Virus record (IMG/VR): IMGVR_UViG_3300045988_163275
Coordinates: 32,001-96,000 of that record
Reading direction: 5' to 3' (one strand)
Length of the DNA: 64,000 nucleotides
Origin: a virus
Taxonomy: Duplodnaviria > Heunggongvirae > Uroviricota > Caudoviricetes
Every line of letters begins with the position of its first letter. Positions within the stretch are counted from its first letter, which is position 1. Shown here in pieces: positions 7,740 to 29,045 of this stretch. The translations under genes were made by a program, and so were the position numbers. The notes under the pieces are model-generated. The model saw only the letters and a program-made list of their open reading frames with translations, made no database searches and was not told the DNA's origin.

Positions 7740-8438
7740 TTACGGAACAGCAGTAATCAGATCGCAAATGCCTGTTTTAGTTAAATCACTATTTAGCTTC
7801 TGAAAATTGGCATTCAGCATTGCGGTATGTATTCGATTCTCAAGTTCAAAGAAGAGATCGATCTTGCCCTCTTTGGCTGCCACCTTCTTCCAAATATTCA
7901 CCTGGTCATCTGCGATACGACTTGCGCAGGTGAACAAGAACGAACTCCCTCTGGGAAGGGATGTCGTGCTGTAGTATTCACCGTCAACTTCAATATACTT
8001 AGCTCGGAATGACTCCAGAGTTAGCTTTTTACCGCTCTCAGCCTGCTTTGTGTCTGCCTTGCTTGTCTTTTCCTGAACTTCAGGCTGTTTCTGCACAGGC
8101 TTTGGTGTCTCATTGACCACCGCAGTGCTGGCCGAACCATCCAAACTCTTGAGGCCATTAATTTGGATTAGATAAGCCAACTCCAGAGTCTTATCACCAG
8201 TGAGTTTTCCACGCATACTTACCCATTGACGCTGAACCGTCTTTAAGGCGTCTGCGTCCCCCGGGTTTGCTTTGAGTGCGTTGGAATAGGTAGAGCTAAG
8301 TTGTTCGTCTAATTTTGACAGGCGTTCGTTATCGCAGATTTTGTGTTCGATTTCTGCCGAAGCCTTTTGGCAGTCAAAGCTGGCTGCAAATACAGCCGGC
8401 GATGCCACCAACAATGATGCCAGTAGGATATTTTTCAT
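7740..8438 (-). CDS. secreted protein with LprI/DUF1311-like N-terminal domain
   Basis: signal peptide MKNILLASLLVASPAVFA; FDCQKASAEIEHKICDNERLSKLDEQL pattern; ATG 8436-8438 with GGAG SD (track ORF starts at GTG 8444). Confidence 0.6.
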   Translation of the reverse strand: MKNILLASLLVASPAVFAASFDCQKASAEIEHKICDNERLSKLDEQLSSTYSNALKANPGDADALKTVQRQWVSMRGKLTGDKTLELAYLIQINGLKSLDGSASTAVVNETPKPVQKQPEVQEKTSKADTKQAESGKKLTLESFRAKYIEVDGEYYSTTSLPRGSSFLFTCASRIADDQVNIWKKVAAKEGKIDLFFELENRIHTAMLNANFQKLNSDLTKTGICDLITAVP

Positions 8439-8476
8439 ATTCACTCCATAAATATAAAAGCGCCTGACTATAGCAC

Positions 8477-8692
8477 TTAACCGATTGCTTCTCTCATCTG
8501 ATTGTGAAGCTCTTTCAGCCCATTACGTACCGCGTTCATGATACGTTCCAGGTATTGGTATCTGGGGTTTGGCACCGTTGGCCAACCGGCATACCACGGA
8601 TCGTCACCAAACAGACTCAGCAGTTCGTTACCGACACCGAAACAGCAGCAACTTTCTTTTACGTCATCAGCGTTTTCTGCCTCGTCCCACAT
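8477..8692 (-). CDS. hypothetical protein (71 aa)
   Basis: ATG at 8690-8692; reading frame stays open ~23 codons upstream without a start. Confidence 0.35.
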   Translation of the reverse strand: MWDEAENADDVKESCCCFGVGNELLSLFGDDPWYAGWPTVPNPRYQYLERIMNAVRNGLKELHNQMREAIG

Positions 8693-8978: not shown

Positions 8979-9664
8979 GCCGCGCACCTCTCTGCTTTCT
9001 CCTGCAATTCGCGAACGAACTCGACCAAAGAGCCACCTGGCGGGATCTGGCATTCCTCAACCAACTGGAAGTATATGTCTGCGGCCGCGCGTGTGTTCGA
9101 GCCTTTGTTTAGCTGCTCTTCGCGCAGCGCATCACGTTCATTAATCAAACGGACGCACTCGCCGTTACGCTGATCCACAACGGCCTCAAGTTCAGCGATA
9201 CGTTCGCCAGGAGTCTTACCTTCTTTACGTTGAATGGTGACGGTAAACTCACCCATTTCAGGAACGTCGTACCCCAGCTCCAGGTAGTTTCTGGCCCCGC
9301 TACGAACAAACTCACCGGCAAACATGGTTGCGAACATCGCAGAGGCCATTTCACCTTTAAACAGAGACTCCAAATCTAACGGAGTACCCGCAGCCAGAGC
9401 CGTTTTTTCTGTATCAATTGCAGACATGAATGCATCAAATTCACGAGCACGTTTTTCCAGGTCTCTCCATTGCTCGCTCCAACGTTTAGCAACGAAGTCT
9501 ATGAATGTTTTCGCGGATTCATCATAATCCCCTTCAAACTTAACAGTGCCTTTGTCAATGATGATCTGGTCTACTGCTTCCTCTGCATAACCTCTCATTA
9601 CAAATTTGAAAGGAAAGTCGGCATGGCTTTTGACGTTAAAACGCTCTAACGGAAGATTGCTCAT
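8975..9664 (-). CDS. hypothetical protein (229 aa)
   Basis: ATG at 9662-9664; no recognisable motif. Confidence 0.5.
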   Translation of the reverse strand: MSNLPLERFNVKSHADFPFKFVMRGYAEEAVDQIIIDKGTVKFEGDYDESAKTFIDFVAKRWSEQWRDLEKRAREFDAFMSAIDTEKTALAAGTPLDLESLFKGEMASAMFATMFAGEFVRSGARNYLELGYDVPEMGEFTVTIQRKEGKTPGERIAELEAVVDQRNGECVRLINERDALREEQLNKGSNTRAAADIYFQLVEECQIPPGGSLVEFVRELQEKAERCAA

Positions 9665-9705
9665 GTGTTTTTTCTCTTATCATATAGTCACTATATTCTT
9701 ACATA

Positions 9706-9728
9706 GATTAGGTAAGTATTTACCTCTC
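9706..9728. promoter_or_regulatory. palindromic motif B copy
   Basis: GATTAGGTAAGTATTTACCTCTC between genes. Confidence 0.5.
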
Positions 9729-11412
9729 ATTTAACGCGTTTAAAAACGTATACGCTGACAGTAATCCCGGTGTCTTCAAACATGTTAGTAAACGACTTCC
9801 CTTTGGCATAAACGTAATTATCCAGCGTCATCCAGTTTAGAATTGGCGCGTCGCCCGGCAGCACTGCTACCAGACGCCCACCGACTTTCAGATGTCCCAG
9901 CGCGGCCAACGTGTGCTCTCTGTGACGGCCAAGAGAGTAGGGCGGGTTCATGACGATTTTGTCGAACTGATAACCTGCGTTGTCCTCAGACCACTTCATG
10001 AAGTCGCAGCAGACCGTATTTGTGTACCCCTTGCCAAGCAGGATATCAGCGAAGAGAGGTGCGACTTCTATGCAGGTAACGTCTTCCGGATTGGCGTCGA
10101 TGCAGGCCAGCAGATCTCCGCGCCCGGCTTCAGGCTCCAGCAGCTTCTCACCTGGCTTCAGCTCGATGGCTCTGGCAACGTACTCCGCTATCAAACGCGG
10201 GGTAGGGTAGAACTGGTGTGATTTTGTATCCGGTATTAAGCCGGTGGCCACAATCGTATTGAGCGTATGGCCGATCTCATACGGGAACTGCCAGTGCTTG
10301 TTCTCCTGCACGCCGCCAATAAAGCTCAGTGTACGCTCCAGCTCTTCCACCTGTGACTTCTGAAGACCGGAATCAGAGAAGTACCATACGCGTTTGTCAT
10401 TGCCAGATCGCCCGTCGCGAAGCGCAGTACGCACCGGCTCGGAGATCGTCTTCTGGATTAACCCGAACTGTTTTGGTGCCCGTGTTTTGGGCGCAGTACG
10501 ACATGGAGCCGGGATTGCAGCGGGCATACTGTAAGCCAGCACCTCATTCAGCTTCCAGGCTACGTCAGGATGTATTTCAAAGTGAACGTTGCCGTTCTTA
10601 AACATCTTCACACGCATCAGGTTTCCGTCGACATTCATCCAGTCGCCGGTCTGGCAGTCATTTGCTCGATACGCAGCTGACAGCATCTCGGCCGTGCGGT
10701 TGATGGTGATAAATTCTTTGTGTGCAAAGAAATGCAACATGACGCGCAGGTCGTCTATGTAATCCTCTTTCCGGTAGTTAACGCTGACGCTGTCCCGCCA
10801 GAAATCGGAAATGCAGTCGGCGATGATCAGACGCTCGCTGAAGCCGTTCGTCTTATTGGTCTTGTGAGCAGGACTCAACGCCTTAAACAAGCCATACACG
10901 CGCTCAGAGAGATATTTGTGCCTGTCATTCAGCAAATTAAGCATCGTTGGTATGACCGTTTCTGCTTTGAACTCAGGTACACCAACGAACTCTTTAACCT
11001 TCATTTGATAGCCAGTTCTGTCAGTCTTGATCGTTTCCTGCTTGCCCTCGATAAACTGTTCACGCCACTCGTCGCGGCGGGATGCTGGCATGATCAGCAG
11101 AACGTTGGTCATATCCGTGACCTTCTTCCAGTACTCGGCCCAGATATTTTGTTTCACCCATTCCAGGTCGACTTTGTCCAGCCAGGTTCTGTTAAAGCGT
11201 GTGCGCTCGTCGTCCGGCCGGTGGTTAAGTCGCAGTAGACGGTTAATCATGTTGTGGCGTTCGTCGCCATAAACGAAGTCGTGAACCTTATTCATGAACG
11301 CAATCTCTTTCTCGCATTCGGCCACAATTTCGTGGATAACATTCATTTCCTGCCGGTAGTCAATACCGGTGTCTGGAGTGATAGAGTCAATGATGGAAAG
11401 GGCTGTATTCAT
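9727..11412 (-). CDS. putative amino-methyltransferase (likely DNA N6-adenine) with large N-terminal domain of unknown function
   Basis: C-terminal FYPTP ... LEPEAGRGDLL ... VMNPPYS motifs (AdoMet motif I then NPPY); ATG 11410-11412 (track ORF starts TTG 11430). Confidence 0.55.
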   Translation of the reverse strand: MNTALSIIDSITPDTGIDYRQEMNVIHEIVAECEKEIAFMNKVHDFVYGDERHNMINRLLRLNHRPDDERTRFNRTWLDKVDLEWVKQNIWAEYWKKVTDMTNVLLIMPASRRDEWREQFIEGKQETIKTDRTGYQMKVKEFVGVPEFKAETVIPTMLNLLNDRHKYLSERVYGLFKALSPAHKTNKTNGFSERLIIADCISDFWRDSVSVNYRKEDYIDDLRVMLHFFAHKEFITINRTAEMLSAAYRANDCQTGDWMNVDGNLMRVKMFKNGNVHFEIHPDVAWKLNEVLAYSMPAAIPAPCRTAPKTRAPKQFGLIQKTISEPVRTALRDGRSGNDKRVWYFSDSGLQKSQVEELERTLSFIGGVQENKHWQFPYEIGHTLNTIVATGLIPDTKSHQFYPTPRLIAEYVARAIELKPGEKLLEPEAGRGDLLACIDANPEDVTCIEVAPLFADILLGKGYTNTVCCDFMKWSEDNAGYQFDKIVMNPPYSLGRHREHTLAALGHLKVGGRLVAVLPGDAPILNWMTLDNYVYAKGKSFTNMFEDTGITVSVYVFKRVK

Positions 11413-12178: not shown

Positions 12179-12333
12179 CAAATTCTATGATGATGTGAAG
12201 AGTTGCATTAAGGCGAAAAGACACGCAAAAGGAAAAATCAGGCATACCAGACATTTATTTAAAGTGGCATTCATAGCAGAATGTTCTCATTGCCGAAGTT
12301 CTATTCAGACGTCAGTCCCTAAGAGAGAGCAAA

Positions 12334-13293
12334 ATGTTTGGTAATCTTTTCAAAACGGAAGAAACTAAGGCCCGGGAGGGCTTGGAGTCTCATTATCAGA
12401 AAGTCATGAGCTTCGTTGCTGAAAATGATCTACATGAAGCATGGGAAAAAACACGCAATATCATTTTTCGAAATATGGAAGTTAGAAGCTACATCACGCA
12501 AAACGGCGCGTTCGATCGTAACGATTTTTACTATAAGTCAGCCAAAGAGAAGCTTATTCAAAGCGCCTTCACTTCATACCTACTCATAAAAGTTTTACCT
12601 CAGTTCTATGAAATGCATCTCACCACTTTGAAAAGAAAAGAAAAAACACTCACAACACAGGATGAATACGGGGTCTGGAACTTTGACAAGTGGTTTGATG
12701 AAGTAGACTACTTTTATGACAAGGTAGTAAAAGAGAAAGTTTACGATTGGATCGAAGAGAACACAGGCCGGCTCAACAACCTTTGGTTGGCAGAGTCGGA
12801 GGACAAGAATGCCTGGGGGCGGCCAGTTTACTTTAAATTCCAGTTGCCTGAACAATTTGATCGCTGCGCAATAAATCACATTATGACGGTGGTAGACAAT
12901 ACACCAGAACCTGAATTACCTGAGTACACTTCGCTACTGACCGGGCACGAATATGAGCATTTTGTCGCTGGGGAGTTTATGAAGTATGGATCCGACACCC
13001 AAGTAACTAAGGGCAGCGGCGATCACGGTCTGGATATCCTTGTAACCTATAGAGAAGTTCGAATGGCTGTTCAGTGCAAACACTACCAGTCTAAAGTAGG
13101 CAACAAAGCTATTCAGGAAGCATTTTCCGCGAAACAGTTCTACGATTGCTCCCTCGCAATAGTAGTCAGCAACAGCGAGTTTACCCCTCACGCCAGACAA
13201 GCAGCCAAAAAACTGGACGTTTATCTGTATCACCATGAAGATATACACTTAATAATAGACGCCATTAATAATTGGCTGGATGCGCCGGAGTGA
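12334..13293 (+). CDS. Mrr-like (PD-(D/E)xK) restriction endonuclease-domain protein, N-terminal domain unknown
   Basis: C-terminal GSGDHGLDILV ... VQCKHYQSKVGNKAIQEAF ... IVVSNSEFTPHARQAAKKLDVYL resembles Mrr catalytic domain; plus-strand, AT-rich, amid minus-strand genes. Confidence 0.6.
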   Translation: MFGNLFKTEETKAREGLESHYQKVMSFVAENDLHEAWEKTRNIIFRNMEVRSYITQNGAFDRNDFYYKSAKEKLIQSAFTSYLLIKVLPQFYEMHLTTLKRKEKTLTTQDEYGVWNFDKWFDEVDYFYDKVVKEKVYDWIEENTGRLNNLWLAESEDKNAWGRPVYFKFQLPEQFDRCAINHIMTVVDNTPEPELPEYTSLLTGHEYEHFVAGEFMKYGSDTQVTKGSGDHGLDILVTYREVRMAVQCKHYQSKVGNKAIQEAFSAKQFYDCSLAIVVSNSEFTPHARQAAKKLDVYLYHHEDIHLIIDAINNWLDAPE

Positions 13294-13328
13294 AGATTGA
13301 GGGGCTAATGCCCCCCCCTATTCGTCGG

Positions 13329-13517
13329 TTAAAAGAACCCGAGGATGCCGCCCACTGGAACAATGAAAACTCCCACGACACGCGCAAGTGTCACTCCGGC
13401 ATGAGACTGGAGATCGCCATCGTTCACAAGTTTCACCAGATTCATGATCCAGCCGCTAAACAAAAAAACGGTAAAGCCAACAATCATCAAGGTGAATTTC
13501 TGGAAGTTCCATTTCAT
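13329..13517 (-). CDS. hypothetical small membrane protein (62 aa)
   Basis: two hydrophobic segments (FTLMIVGFTVFLF, VVGVFIVPVGGILGFF). Confidence 0.3.
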   Translation of the reverse strand: MKWNFQKFTLMIVGFTVFLFSGWIMNLVKLVNDGDLQSHAGVTLARVVGVFIVPVGGILGFF

Positions 13518-13526
13518 ACAATAGCC

Positions 13527-14120
13527 TCAGTCACAGCAGAAGGAAGATCCGGAGTCGCAGGTCGAGCTGGAATCGTGTCCATCAGCATCCCATCCAGAGA
13601 GACAGGAGGTCGTTCGGGCAGGGGGGTCATCTGCAAGGCCGTGGTGGCAGTGGAAGTAGTTGTGCCCGGCATCAAAAGGCTCTGACCGGCTGGTACGGTA
13701 ACCGCTGCCAGAGTTGCCAAAATCACTCCGTAGGCCATTGGCTTCAGTCGATTTCGTTGAAAATTTTCCATGAGAACTGTCCTTGTGTGTCCGGGTTTCA
13801 CGCAAAACACGAGAAGCAACGCTATTACGCACCTTCTCCATGCCTACTGTCGTGCCCAGATTAGCTATGGCGGTAGCTTGCGCATTAATGCGCTTCTCCA
13901 GTTCAAACACTCGTTCTTCCAGTTCCGCAAGGCGTGCGGAAACACGACCACTAAACAGCTCGGTCAGCACCAGGCGAATTGAACGGGGACGTTTATTGAA
14001 AGAAGTGAAAGACGTTTGACGGGCCATGTGGATTCCATTCAGTGTCAGAAAGAGTTGCGGCTGGCCAAGCCGCCTTTTGGCGTTCCATCCTGGAACCGTA
14101 CCTAACCGGTACTTCGTCAT
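13527..14120 (-). CDS. hypothetical coiled-coil protein; 3' part overlaps an alternative frame
   Basis: ATG 14118-14120; N-terminal half has LAELEERVFELEKRINAQ heptads; C-terminal third is low-complexity and overlapped by frame 13514..13819 (signal-peptide-like protein). Confidence 0.35.
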   Translation of the reverse strand: MTKYRLGTVPGWNAKRRLGQPQLFLTLNGIHMARQTSFTSFNKRPRSIRLVLTELFSGRVSARLAELEERVFELEKRINAQATAIANLGTTVGMEKVRNSVASRVLRETRTHKDSSHGKFSTKSTEANGLRSDFGNSGSGYRTSRSEPFDAGHNYFHCHHGLADDPPARTTSCLSGWDADGHDSSSTCDSGSSFCCD

Positions 14121-14151
14121 CCTGACGATTTATAAGATACCTGATTTATTA

Positions 14152-14175
14152 TAGTAGGTAAATACTTACTTATCT
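14152..14175. promoter_or_regulatory. palindromic motif B copy
   Basis: TAGTAGGTAAATACTTACTTATC 32 nt upstream of ATG 14120. Confidence 0.5.
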
Positions 14176-14177
14176 TT

Positions 14178-14774
14178 TTATGACAAAAACCCAATGTCAT
14201 GCTTGTGAGGCATATCAGCTGCGGAATAGGCGGCGATCTTCGCCAGACGGTCACACATTTCGTTCTCGCGATGACCTGCATGGCCTTTAACCCACTTCCA
14301 GCGGACATTATGACGACTGGCGGCCGCGTCGAGACGTTTCCAGAGATCCACGTTTTTGACTGGCTTCTTCTCAGACGTGATCCATCCGTTACGCTTCCAG
14401 CCTTTCATCCAGAGCGTCATGCCGTTTTTAAGATACTGGCTGTCGGAATGCAGGATCACGTTGCAGGGGTACTTCAGACGCTCCAGCGCAATCAGGGCGC
14501 CCATCATCTCCATCCGATTGTTGGTCGTGCTGTGGAAGCCCTCAGAAAGCTCGCGCTCTTCGCCTCGATACTGGAGAACGATGCCGTAACCGCCCGGCCC
14601 GCCCGGATTTTTGAGGCAGGAGCCATCACTGAATACTTTTACGGTTTTGAGCTGGGGATTGAACTCGACTACGGGTGTGTTGAAATTGGTACGGGAATGC
14701 TGGTGGGTTTGGCATCTGGCTTTAGACTTCGTGCGGCAGCCAGTGCGTTGCCGGACTGGGTTCTTGGTCGTCAT
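14178..14774 (-). CDS. rnhA: ribonuclease HI with ~40-aa basic N-terminal extension
   Basis: [18 protein letters not shown] ... [11 protein letters not shown] ... HSDSQY ... [13 protein letters not shown] ... [15 protein letters not shown] match RNase HI catalytic motifs; ATG 14772-14774 with GGAG SD. Confidence 0.85.
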
Positions 14775-15368
14775 TTTGGCTCCAGAATCGTGCGCCGCGA
14801 CGATTTTTGTTTTCTCGCGCGTGTGCGCACGCGTGCGTGTAAATAATAAAAAATTTTATAAAAGAAAAACTTACTTCCCAGAACAGGTTTTAATAAAACC
14901 TGAACTGAACGAACGAAGTGAGTGAAGTTCACCTCGAACGAAGTGAGAGGTTGTCTTTTCAGGTAATACTCTCCCAGGGAGGTGAGTACAAAATTTCCTC
15001 ACCAACCTGGTCGTTTCATAACCTGAAAAGTTATGACCTAAGTCTACTGCCAGCTTAGGCTTGGGAAGTTATGGATGACAGCACCCCAGAACCGAGATCT
15101 TCCCACACTTTATGAAGGGGAGTACTGGAATCAACCTCTCGAAACACTCCAGACTCGACAATCATAAAGTGACCCTTCTCTCTGCTCACTTTGGTTCCCC
15201 CTTCCCCAACCCCTAAACGGTGCTGGTTCTACGCTGGTAGTGAGCTTTTTTAAACCTGACGCCAGTGACGCAATCCCCCACCCATCAGGTCGAGCTGCCG
15301 AAAGTATCCGGAAGCGGATAGATTGTATCACTGGTTAGTGGCGCTTTGAATGGTAAGTACTTACCTAT
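14775..15368. other. ~600-bp ORF-poor structured non-coding region
   Basis: alternating GCGCGTGTGCGCACGCGTGCGTG tract, AT-rich block, direct repeat CGAACGAAGTGAG x2, several inverted repeats; only low-complexity ORF 15131..15331. Confidence 0.4.
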
Positions 15369-28238: not shown

Positions 28239-28883
28239 TTAAAACGTCTCTGAGGGCTTCTGACGCGCTCTGCTGATGTCTATTACCCCAGCTTTTGGAC
28301 GAGGGTCTACAAGATTCAACTCTTCAGCACTGTGATACTCCGTGTCGAACTCCCGATCGACATGGCGAATGTAAATGGCTGTCAGAAGGCTGTTATCATT
28401 CAGAAAGTGTCCGTAAGATTTGCGAATTACTTCGCCAACCTTCTCAATCTTCTCTCCGCCCATGCAGAGATGGTTAAATCGGCTGTGTTTCCGCAGCATT
28501 TCATCCACCGGGCCTGAGTAGACCTTATCAACTCTCCCGAACCGGATGACATTTCCGGTATCAGCTTCAACCAGACAAACGAGTTTGCCAGGTTCGACAC
28601 GATCTCGCCAAGTGACACCAGAGCGCAGTGTGTTGAAGTAGGGAGCATCCAATCCGATGATCGGTTTACGAAATGCTAGTAGTGGCACGTAACGTATGCA
28701 GCTGTTTAGGTGGAAATGCGCACCGGCGTCGTGGAGTTTAAGCCGGGTTTCGTTAATCGGGCATTTCGAAGCAATGCCGCAAAGGTCGCAGAGCAACTTC
28801 TGTTTGTTCAGACTAGTGTTTGATTCAATGGTGTAGGAGCCATCTTCAAGACGGCGAACCCAGCGCGTGCGTTTAAGATCCAT
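28239..28883 (-). CDS. hypothetical protein (214 aa)
   Basis: ATG 28881-28883; divergent from repA; no SD found. Confidence 0.45.
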   Translation of the reverse strand: MDLKRTRWVRRLEDGSYTIESNTSLNKQKLLCDLCGIASKCPINETRLKLHDAGAHFHLNSCIRYVPLLAFRKPIIGLDAPYFNTLRSGVTWRDRVEPGKLVCLVEADTGNVIRFGRVDKVYSGPVDEMLRKHSRFNHLCMGGEKIEKVGEVIRKSYGHFLNDNSLLTAIYIRHVDREFDTEYHSAEELNLVDPRPKAGVIDISRARQKPSETF

Positions 28884-28969
28884 AATTCTTGTTCAAATAA
28901 TTTTGTCCGGGGCAACGATAACGGATAAGGCGCACCGGAGTTTGCAAATGCCTGTTTACTTATTCACTT

Positions 28970-29045
28970 TATTCACAGGCCCGATCCAATATTTAGATCC
29001 CCAGAGAGATCCTACAGAAGATCAAAAGAGATCCCCGATCGTCTC
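28970..29045. promoter_or_regulatory. GATC-rich origin-like element (6 GATC in ~60 bp), unit 1
   Basis: CACAGGCCCGATCCA ... AGATCC repeats; near-identical block again at 29346-29416. Confidence 0.55.

Follow-up and report, generated by a model that had tools for sequence, protein, structure and literature searches.

A probable out-of-frame overlapping gene at the 3' end of a coiled-coil-like gene in SSU5/pHCM2-type phage-plasmids

We studied three short reading frames on the minus strand of a 64,000-nucleotide stretch of a Caudoviricetes genome (positions 32,001 to 96,000 of IMG/VR record IMGVR_UViG_3300045988_163275; hereafter, the window). The first, gene A, probably encodes a coiled-coil-like protein; the second, B, overlaps the 3' end of A in another frame; and the third, gene C, follows directly. 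We argue that B is a genuine out-of-frame gene with an independent start and that A is translated through the overlap as well, and we would put the probability of this at roughly 75%. The main evidence is that natural selection switches from the frame of A to the frame of B at the start codon of B, and that this start codon, its ribosome-binding site, and both reading frames are conserved across the lineages of this family of elements.

A first-pass annotation of the window had noticed these open reading frames (ORFs), which are indeed present at 13527..14120, 13514..13819, and 13329..13517, all on the minus strand, and it had proposed that B might be an embedded gene, a frameshift, or an annotation artefact. 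The comparative evidence supports the first option, with the proviso that the genes are, strictly speaking, overlapping. The idea of an artefact is partly right, in that the RefSeq (PGAP) records that we examined annotate A and omit B; but the long frame of A is not itself an artefact, because it meets no stop codon until 13527. The outer limits given for A and B (197 and 101 amino acids) are those of real ORFs, but both overstate the genes, which are likely of 166 and 85 amino acids. The coordinates of the locus are given in Table 1.

Table 1. Features of the locus, in window coordinates
Feature	Position	Strand	Remarks
Longest ORF containing A	13527..14120	-	197 amino acids
Gene A	14027..13527	-	166 amino acids; phrog_10411, E=7e-84
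A-only part	13772..14027	-	Codons 1-85; one frame in use
Last 14 codons of A (..TCDSGSSFCCD)	13527..13568	-	Selection signal weakly back in frame A (suggestive)
Longest ORF containing B	13514..13819	-	101 amino acids, counted from TTG
Shine-Dalgarno-like AAGGA	13780..13784	-	8 nucleotides upstream of B's ATG
Gene B (probable)	13771..13514	-	85 amino acids; +1 frame of A; phrog_15659, E=3e-14
ATGA overlap	13514..13517	-	B stop (13516..13514) shares bases with C start (13517..13515)
Gene C	13517..13329	-	62 amino acids; two hydrophobic segments; phrog_6006, E=5e-20
rnhA	14774..14178	-	Intact ORF, 198 amino acids; upstream of gene A
Mrr-like restriction endonuclease gene	12334..13293	+	Convergent on gene C

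Frames, start signals, and selection

We collected the locus from annotated phages and plasmids, from IMG/VR viral contigs (60 loci), from GTDB genomes (3 loci), and from the contigs of divergent A homologues that were found by protein search. The resulting set has 54 distinct nucleotide sequences, which fall into about nine lineages: the window together with SSU5 and pHCM2; Cyrano/PhiR41_1 from E. coli (with sub-lineage L037); pJN2-26 from Klebsiella; Cronobacter; RHB20-C16 from Citrobacter; Salmonella Infantis; a distant metagenomic lineage (L088); and recombinants. The two-frame arrangement is found in elements from E. coli, Salmonella, Klebsiella, Enterobacter, Citrobacter, Cronobacter, Kluyvera, and Buttiauxella. 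L074, P0014, and P0017 are mosaics with breakpoints inside the A/B overlap, and combine the N-terminus of the window's clade with the tail of the E. coli clade, or the reverse.

B starts within A and ends 13 nucleotides beyond the stop codon of A, so that about 245 bp (13527-13771, minus strand) are read twice. In all 54 distinct sequences, this stretch is free of stop codons in both frames, and 3-9 stops interrupt the third sense frame. The stop-free set includes L088, whose A has limited residue identity to the A of the window. The 13-nucleotide spacing between the two stops is the same in every lineage, and the inter-lineage indels are all multiples of three. Still, the openness of B is uninformative by itself: when we resampled codons with the usage of the window while holding the protein sequence of the A tail, B was open in 9-73% of the trials. 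In the reverse simulation, which held the protein sequence of B, A was open in 4-19% of the trials per lineage.

The start signals are more telling. The ATG of B is at the same place in 10 of 10 lineage representatives, and all ten have a GGA-containing purine block 7-9 nucleotides before it (AAGGA, GGAGAG, AGGGAAAAG, or GGAAGG). The base that precedes the ATG can be C, A, G, or T, depending on the lineage, and the corresponding residue of A is H, N, D, or Y. Because all four nucleotides are found there while the ATG is invariant, the residue of A at this point is unconstrained. Judging from the alignment, the ATG at 13771 is most likely the start of B, as no other start is conserved across all lineages; L083 and L088 lack the second methionine (residue 12), at which the PHROG profile starts, and this leaves the first ATG as the conserved start.

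To separate selection on the two frames, we used an OLGenie-style estimator, in which both sites and differences are classed as synonymous or nonsynonymous in A and in B (Table 2). Purifying selection acts on A upstream of the overlap, and it acts on frame B in the N-terminal half of B. In a sliding window, the changeover comes within a few codons of B's ATG: the rate of A-synonymous change drops from 0.5-1.2 to 0.08-0.18, and that of B-synonymous change climbs to 0.47-0.65. Between the A-only part and the overlap, dSN differs by 0.50 (0.32-0.69). Counting parsimony changes by the codon position of A gives the same picture. In the A-only part the counts are 59:40:101 (p=4.5e-7), which is the periodicity of A, and in the N-terminal half of B they are 46:27:22 (p=0.006), which for the codons of B means that position 3 varies more than position 1 and position 1 more than position 2.

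Table 2. Substitution rates by segment of the A/B alignment (ranges in parentheses)
Segment	Alignment codon columns	dNN	dNS	dSN	omega_A	omega_B
A-only	2-88	0.26	0.38	0.77	0.34 (0.25-0.45)	0.70 (0.53-0.92), mock frame
B N-terminal half (first ~42 B codons)	94-135	0.19	0.56	0.11	1.73 (0.92-3.9)	0.33 (0.21-0.52)
Indel-rich middle	136-152	0.49	0.50	0.64	0.77	0.98
SGWD/LDGM block	153-166	0.17	0.18	0.20	0.84	0.90
A last 14 codons	167-180	0.36	0.30	0.77	0.47 (0.17-0.94)	1.23

The rest of the overlap is less uniform. The middle segment shows constraint in neither frame. In the SGWD/LDGM block, conservation extends to all three codon positions. Within the final 14 codons of A, changes that are synonymous in A, such as TGT/TGC and GAC/GAT, alter residues of B. 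Selection would thus be partitioned along the overlap: the N-terminal half of B would be held as frame B, with the tail of A as a passenger, and the cysteine-rich, acidic C-terminus of A appears to be constrained as frame A.

Putting this together, we propose that ribosomes that start at the ATG at 14027 would translate A to its stop codon, and that separate ribosomes would initiate at the internal ribosome-binding site and the ATG at 13771 and make B in the +1 frame. The ATGA at the junction between B and C would fit translational coupling of B to C. Every lineage that has C keeps this ATGA, or GTGA in the Klebsiella clade, and the lineages that lack C end B at the same position with TAA (ATAA in L083 and GTAA in L088).

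The three gene products

Gene A probably starts at the ATG at 14027, and the 197-amino-acid version is probably too long. The equivalent ATG, and never position 14120, is the start of A in every annotated relative; in L083, the extension 5' of this start lies in another frame; and in the window a terminator-like hairpin (14073..14057) sits inside the extension. A is also 166 amino acids long in the closest relatives, and 155-179 amino acids elsewhere. In a model from AlphaFold2 (AF2) with an alignment of 15 sequences, A has a single long helix at residues 17-83, with values of the predicted local distance difference test (pLDDT) of up to 91, followed by a tail of 81 residues (86-166) that has pLDDT below 50 and is predicted to be disordered. 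We found no hydrophobic segment in A (the maximum 15-residue Kyte-Doolittle value is 0.91). So we predict that A encodes a cytoplasmic long-helix, coiled-coil-like protein with a disordered tail. Ser, Gly, Asp, and His are abundant in the tail, which also contains five cysteines and ends in CCD. The first-pass annotation had remarked that A becomes low-complexity where B begins, and this is accurate: the tail starts exactly at B's ATG, which is codon 86 of A. Even in the most divergent lineage, a C.SGW(D/N)..G.D block and the acidic, cysteine-rich end of A are kept.

The product of B was described as signal-peptide-like and proline-rich, and we agree. Its N-terminus (MENFQRNRLKP, with a net charge of +2) is followed by a 15-residue hydrophobic core and by VPAGQS. 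There is a single hydrophobic segment (residues 11-30), and the remainder is rich in Thr and Pro and contains a conserved LDGM..D.IP block. Across lineages, the substitutions in the hydrophobic core are among hydrophobic residues only. Sec-type signal peptides combine a positively charged n-region, an h-region of 7-15 hydrophobic residues, and a c-region whose residues at -1 and -3 are small. By inspection, the h-region of B is MAYGVILATLAAVTV, with V-P-A|G or G-Q-S|L as possible cleavage sites. From these features, B is probably exported or anchored in the membrane. In public data, B is occasionally called as a gene.

The 62-residue product of C had been seen as a two-helix membrane protein, and its two hydrophobic segments bear this out. 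C is an accessory partner that is absent or replaced in some lineages: it is missing in L083 and L088 and truncated in L009 and L010. In three members of the Klebsiella clade, L005 (at ~1300-1500), L013, and L014, there is an unannotated but intact homologue of C whose GTG start overlaps the stop of B, and this is a probable missed gene. Protein searches found no homologues of either B or C outside this element family, and a profile search of 1.84 billion representative proteins found that the A family is limited to this group of elements, plus low-complexity noise. Because each of the three proteins matches a PHROG family, each must be annotated in at least some phage genomes. All three families are labelled "unknown function." Searches of A, B, and C against Pfam, NCBIfam, and PADLOC gave nothing significant, just coiled-coil noise such as SlyX-like models with E=0.02-0.12. 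None of the papers that our literature searches turned up describes this locus or treats A and B as an overlapping pair.

Weighing the explanations

The window is not peculiar. The first-pass annotation had allowed for a sequencing indel, and it is true that public assemblies include A-B fusions that arose from indels; but the two-frame arrangement is the majority state, and it is shared by 54 distinct sequences that span many genera, come from many sequencing projects, and differ between lineages by indels that preserve the frame. This excludes a sequencing error, and we give practically no credence to an assembly indel or a pseudogene in the window. It is also very improbable that only A is real and that frame B is accidentally open because of the Ser/Gly/Asp/His-rich composition of the A tail. 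The reshuffling results would allow for this, the annotated records that we examined list A alone over the overlap, and our estimator is biased downward for B. However, an accident would not explain why, within the first ~42 codons of B, the third codon positions of A are the least variable and the first positions are the most variable, or why A-synonymous changes are about 7-fold rarer there than in the rest of A (with omega_A at 1.7). Nor would it explain why every lineage keeps an ATG, a ribosome-binding site, and a stop at a constant position, or why the hydrophobic core of B keeps its character. We also considered an RNA element as the cause of the suppressed synonymous change and rejected it: RNAalifold gave no consensus pairs around B's ATG (-50 to +40), and Rfam gave no match above threshold. 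There was a sub-threshold match to the c-di-GMP-I riboswitch across the start of B (13694-13779, minus strand; 20.1 bits against a gathering score of 35, E=0.27), which is probably due to chance, because no structure is conserved across lineages.

Programmed +1 frameshifting would make do without an independent start for B: ribosomes translating A would shift near the junction and make a fusion of ~168 amino acids, with the coiled coil, the membrane segment, and the proline-rich tail. Upstream of its ATG, frame B stays open for another 9-24 codons, and in most lineages a run of T (GGAAAATTTTCAA) lies after the ATG, just past the junction. But the run is not kept in the Klebsiella, Citrobacter, and L088 lineages (GGATCAATTTCAA is seen in Klebsiella, AATTATCAA in L081, and AACTTTCAG in L088); it is not followed by a slow codon or a stop; and there is no conserved RNA structure within 40 nucleotides downstream of the ATG. 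The -1 frame is closed, which speaks against the frameshift that the first-pass annotation had listed. Furthermore, the switch in selection coincides with B's ATG, and this ATG and its ribosome-binding site are conserved even though the residue of A is free to vary there. Fusions of A to B do exist in protein databases, but their junctions are at many points and they originate from indels in the DNA. The commonest, P0029 (L085-L087, gene at 1501-2007; 132 index blocks), is due to a clean 1-nucleotide deletion within the overlap, from GACGACACCCC to GACGAC-CCCC, which joins A to the last 43 residues of B. It destroys the tail of A and the C-terminal half of B, so B is truncated. We consider programmed frameshifting to be quite unlikely.

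A harder question is whether the tail of A matters. If only B were functional in the overlap, then the tail would be functionless read-through that is open because of the composition of B or because A needs a stop near the start of C. We think that this is unlikely, but it has a real chance of being right. Omega_A is near 1 over the whole overlap and well above it over the first half, the tail is predicted to be disordered and has been lost by a successful lineage, and the chance that A would be open (4-19% per lineage) is not negligible. On the other hand, A is open in all of the roughly nine lineages, with its stop at a constant place, and the most divergent lineage retains the C.SGW(D/N)..G.D block as well as the acidic, cysteine-rich end. 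In the last 14 codons, omega_A is below 1, with changes that are synonymous in A but alter B. Also, the B-synonymous rate in the overlap (0.42-0.56) is below the A-synonymous rate in the A-only part (0.77).

We still favor two translated genes, but several observations weigh against this. Over the whole overlap, omega_A is 0.96 and omega_B is 0.58, so most of the A tail is without constraint of its own, and the codon-position counts are not significantly non-uniform (p=0.12); the signal is visible only after segmenting. The estimator is biased downward for this relation of frames, as seen from the mock frame B in the A-only part, whose omega_B is 0.70 (0.53-0.92). Given this bias and the weak signal over the whole overlap, the case for B comes mainly from its N-terminal half. 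At the C-terminus of A, the evidence for selection comes from 14 codons where the raw counts are uninformative, and we view it as suggestive. The lineages are not independent samples, because the sequences are related and recombine (L074, P0014, and P0017). The AF2 model of B has low confidence (pLDDT of 55), and the family matches do not give a function for A, B, or C. Both the translation of B and its coupling to C are inferred by comparing sequences. Finally, the widespread P0029 lineage has lost both the A tail and the C-terminal half of B, so neither is essential for the persistence of the element.

The element and known overlapping genes

The region around the locus (12300-14800) is 80-99% identical to non-mobilizable IncFIB-type plasmids of ~100-110 kb from E. 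coli, Klebsiella, Enterobacter, and Salmonella, and 92% identical to Salmonella phage SSU5. All of the plasmid and bacterial matches to this region are plasmid-borne and none are chromosomal. Plasmid homologues number several hundred (681 matching records). These matches identify the window as part of an SSU5/pHCM2-type phage-plasmid. Read along the minus strand, rnhA comes first, then A (with B overlapping), and then C. In the closest relative, pYLPI6a (L001; 99% identical), rnhA and a phage N-6-adenine methyltransferase (7870-8549 and 9506-10100) are annotated as frameshifted pseudogenes, and dfrA51, thymidylate synthase, and other genes of nucleotide metabolism lie a few kb beyond rnhA on the same strand. 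In L085-L087, the gene calls upstream of A do not include rnhA.

The slot 3' of C (12334-13293, plus strand, in the window) is a hotspot of variation. In the window and a few E. coli plasmids, it contains the Mrr-like restriction endonuclease; SSU5 and pHCM2 have Rha/Ant; the E. coli, Klebsiella, and Cronobacter clades have TerB (similar to TciA of phage P1) and DUF3927 (TciB-like); and in Citrobacter and K. pneumoniae F81 the slot is taken by a HypX-like gene, which truncates C. A GGGGC-TAAT-GCCCC hairpin at 13301-13314, where the Mrr-like gene and C converge, was passed over by our terminator scan because it has no T-run. There is also an antisense ORF of 137 codons (13272-13685, plus strand) opposite C and the A/B overlap. 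In other lineage representatives this reverse frame is interrupted by stops, so it is probably not a gene.

These elements are clinically widespread: they include pHCM2 of Salmonella Typhi and ~110-kb phage-plasmids of Klebsiella, E. coli, Enterobacter, and Cronobacter. B would add a probably exported protein to their repertoire, and the locus illustrates how selection can be divided, segment by segment, between two frames. Since the element tolerates the loss, the locus may be of modest biological importance. A T-to-C change at 13770 (minus strand) would remove the start of B (ATG to ACG) and be silent in A (His, CAT to CAC), which makes it a clean genetic handle. Peptides that are specific to the A tail are SDFGNSGSGYR and SEPFDAGHNYFHCHHGLADDPPAR, and tryptic peptides that are specific to B are PPVSLDGMLMDTIPAR and PATPDLPSAVTEAIV. 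As to function, our guess, with low confidence, is an accessory role that is directed at the cell envelope and is expressed along with early and replication genes.

The closest parallel is with the spanins. As in Rz/Rz1 of phage lambda, the 3' end of a coiled-coil gene is overlapped, in the +1 frame, by a gene that has its own start and encodes a small proline-rich protein whose N-terminus carries an export signal (a probable one in B). An i-spanin has an N-terminal transmembrane domain and then periplasmic coiled coils, and an o-spanin is a lipoprotein, with a lipobox and an invariant cysteine after the signal sequence. The gene pairs for two-component spanins can be embedded or overlapped (Kongari et al. 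2018, PMC6139136), and, because B ends 13 nucleotides after A, A and B would be "overlapped" in these terms. But SSU5 has its own overlapped spanin pair, SSU5_028/029 (supplement of Kongari et al. 2018, PMC6139136). This pair is at 28586-29000, next to the holin and the endolysin, in a lysis cassette that is ~51 kb from A/B and is not within the window. Unlike the i-spanin of SSU5, which has a hydrophobic segment, A has no transmembrane domain; and whereas the o-spanin of SSU5 has VSGC, the B of the window has no cysteine, and none of the lineages conserves a lipobox-like L-x-[GAS]-C. The locus lies among early genes and genes of nucleotide metabolism: the neighbors of A and B are rnhA, the methylase, and the Mrr-like nuclease or TerB/Rha, rather than a holin or an endolysin. 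Because A lacks a transmembrane domain, B lacks a lipobox, and the spanins of SSU5 are elsewhere, we reject the idea that A and B are a spanin pair. A bolder view, which we hold only tentatively and doubt in its full form, is that A, B, and (where present) C are an unrecognised module of SSU5/pHCM2-type elements that lies outside the spanin paradigm, with the A tail and B dual-coded, one of the two readings born by overprinting, and a role directed at the envelope (exclusion, host takeover, or the timing of lysis).

Two frames at the 3' end of one gene are also found in the tail assembly chaperones G and GT of phage lambda, where a conserved -1 slippery heptamer yields a fusion product that has no independent start. 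In contrast, B is in the +1 frame, without a conserved slippery motif and with its own ribosome-binding site and ATG. Out-of-frame overlap between genes, which gene callers suppress by design, is well known from tiny phages and from spanin pairs; to our knowledge, few cases have been documented in large double-stranded DNA phages outside of spanin pairs. The classic overprinted genes are E within D and K within A/C of phiX174, along with the lysis gene L of MS2-type RNA phages. Those genomes are tiny and constrained in size, and the lysis products have known targets, whereas here we have ~100 kb of double-stranded DNA with ample non-coding space. Nevertheless, A and B resemble these cases in their apparent out-of-frame dual coding, in a short product that is probably targeted to the membrane, and in the poor constraint on the other frame within the overlap.

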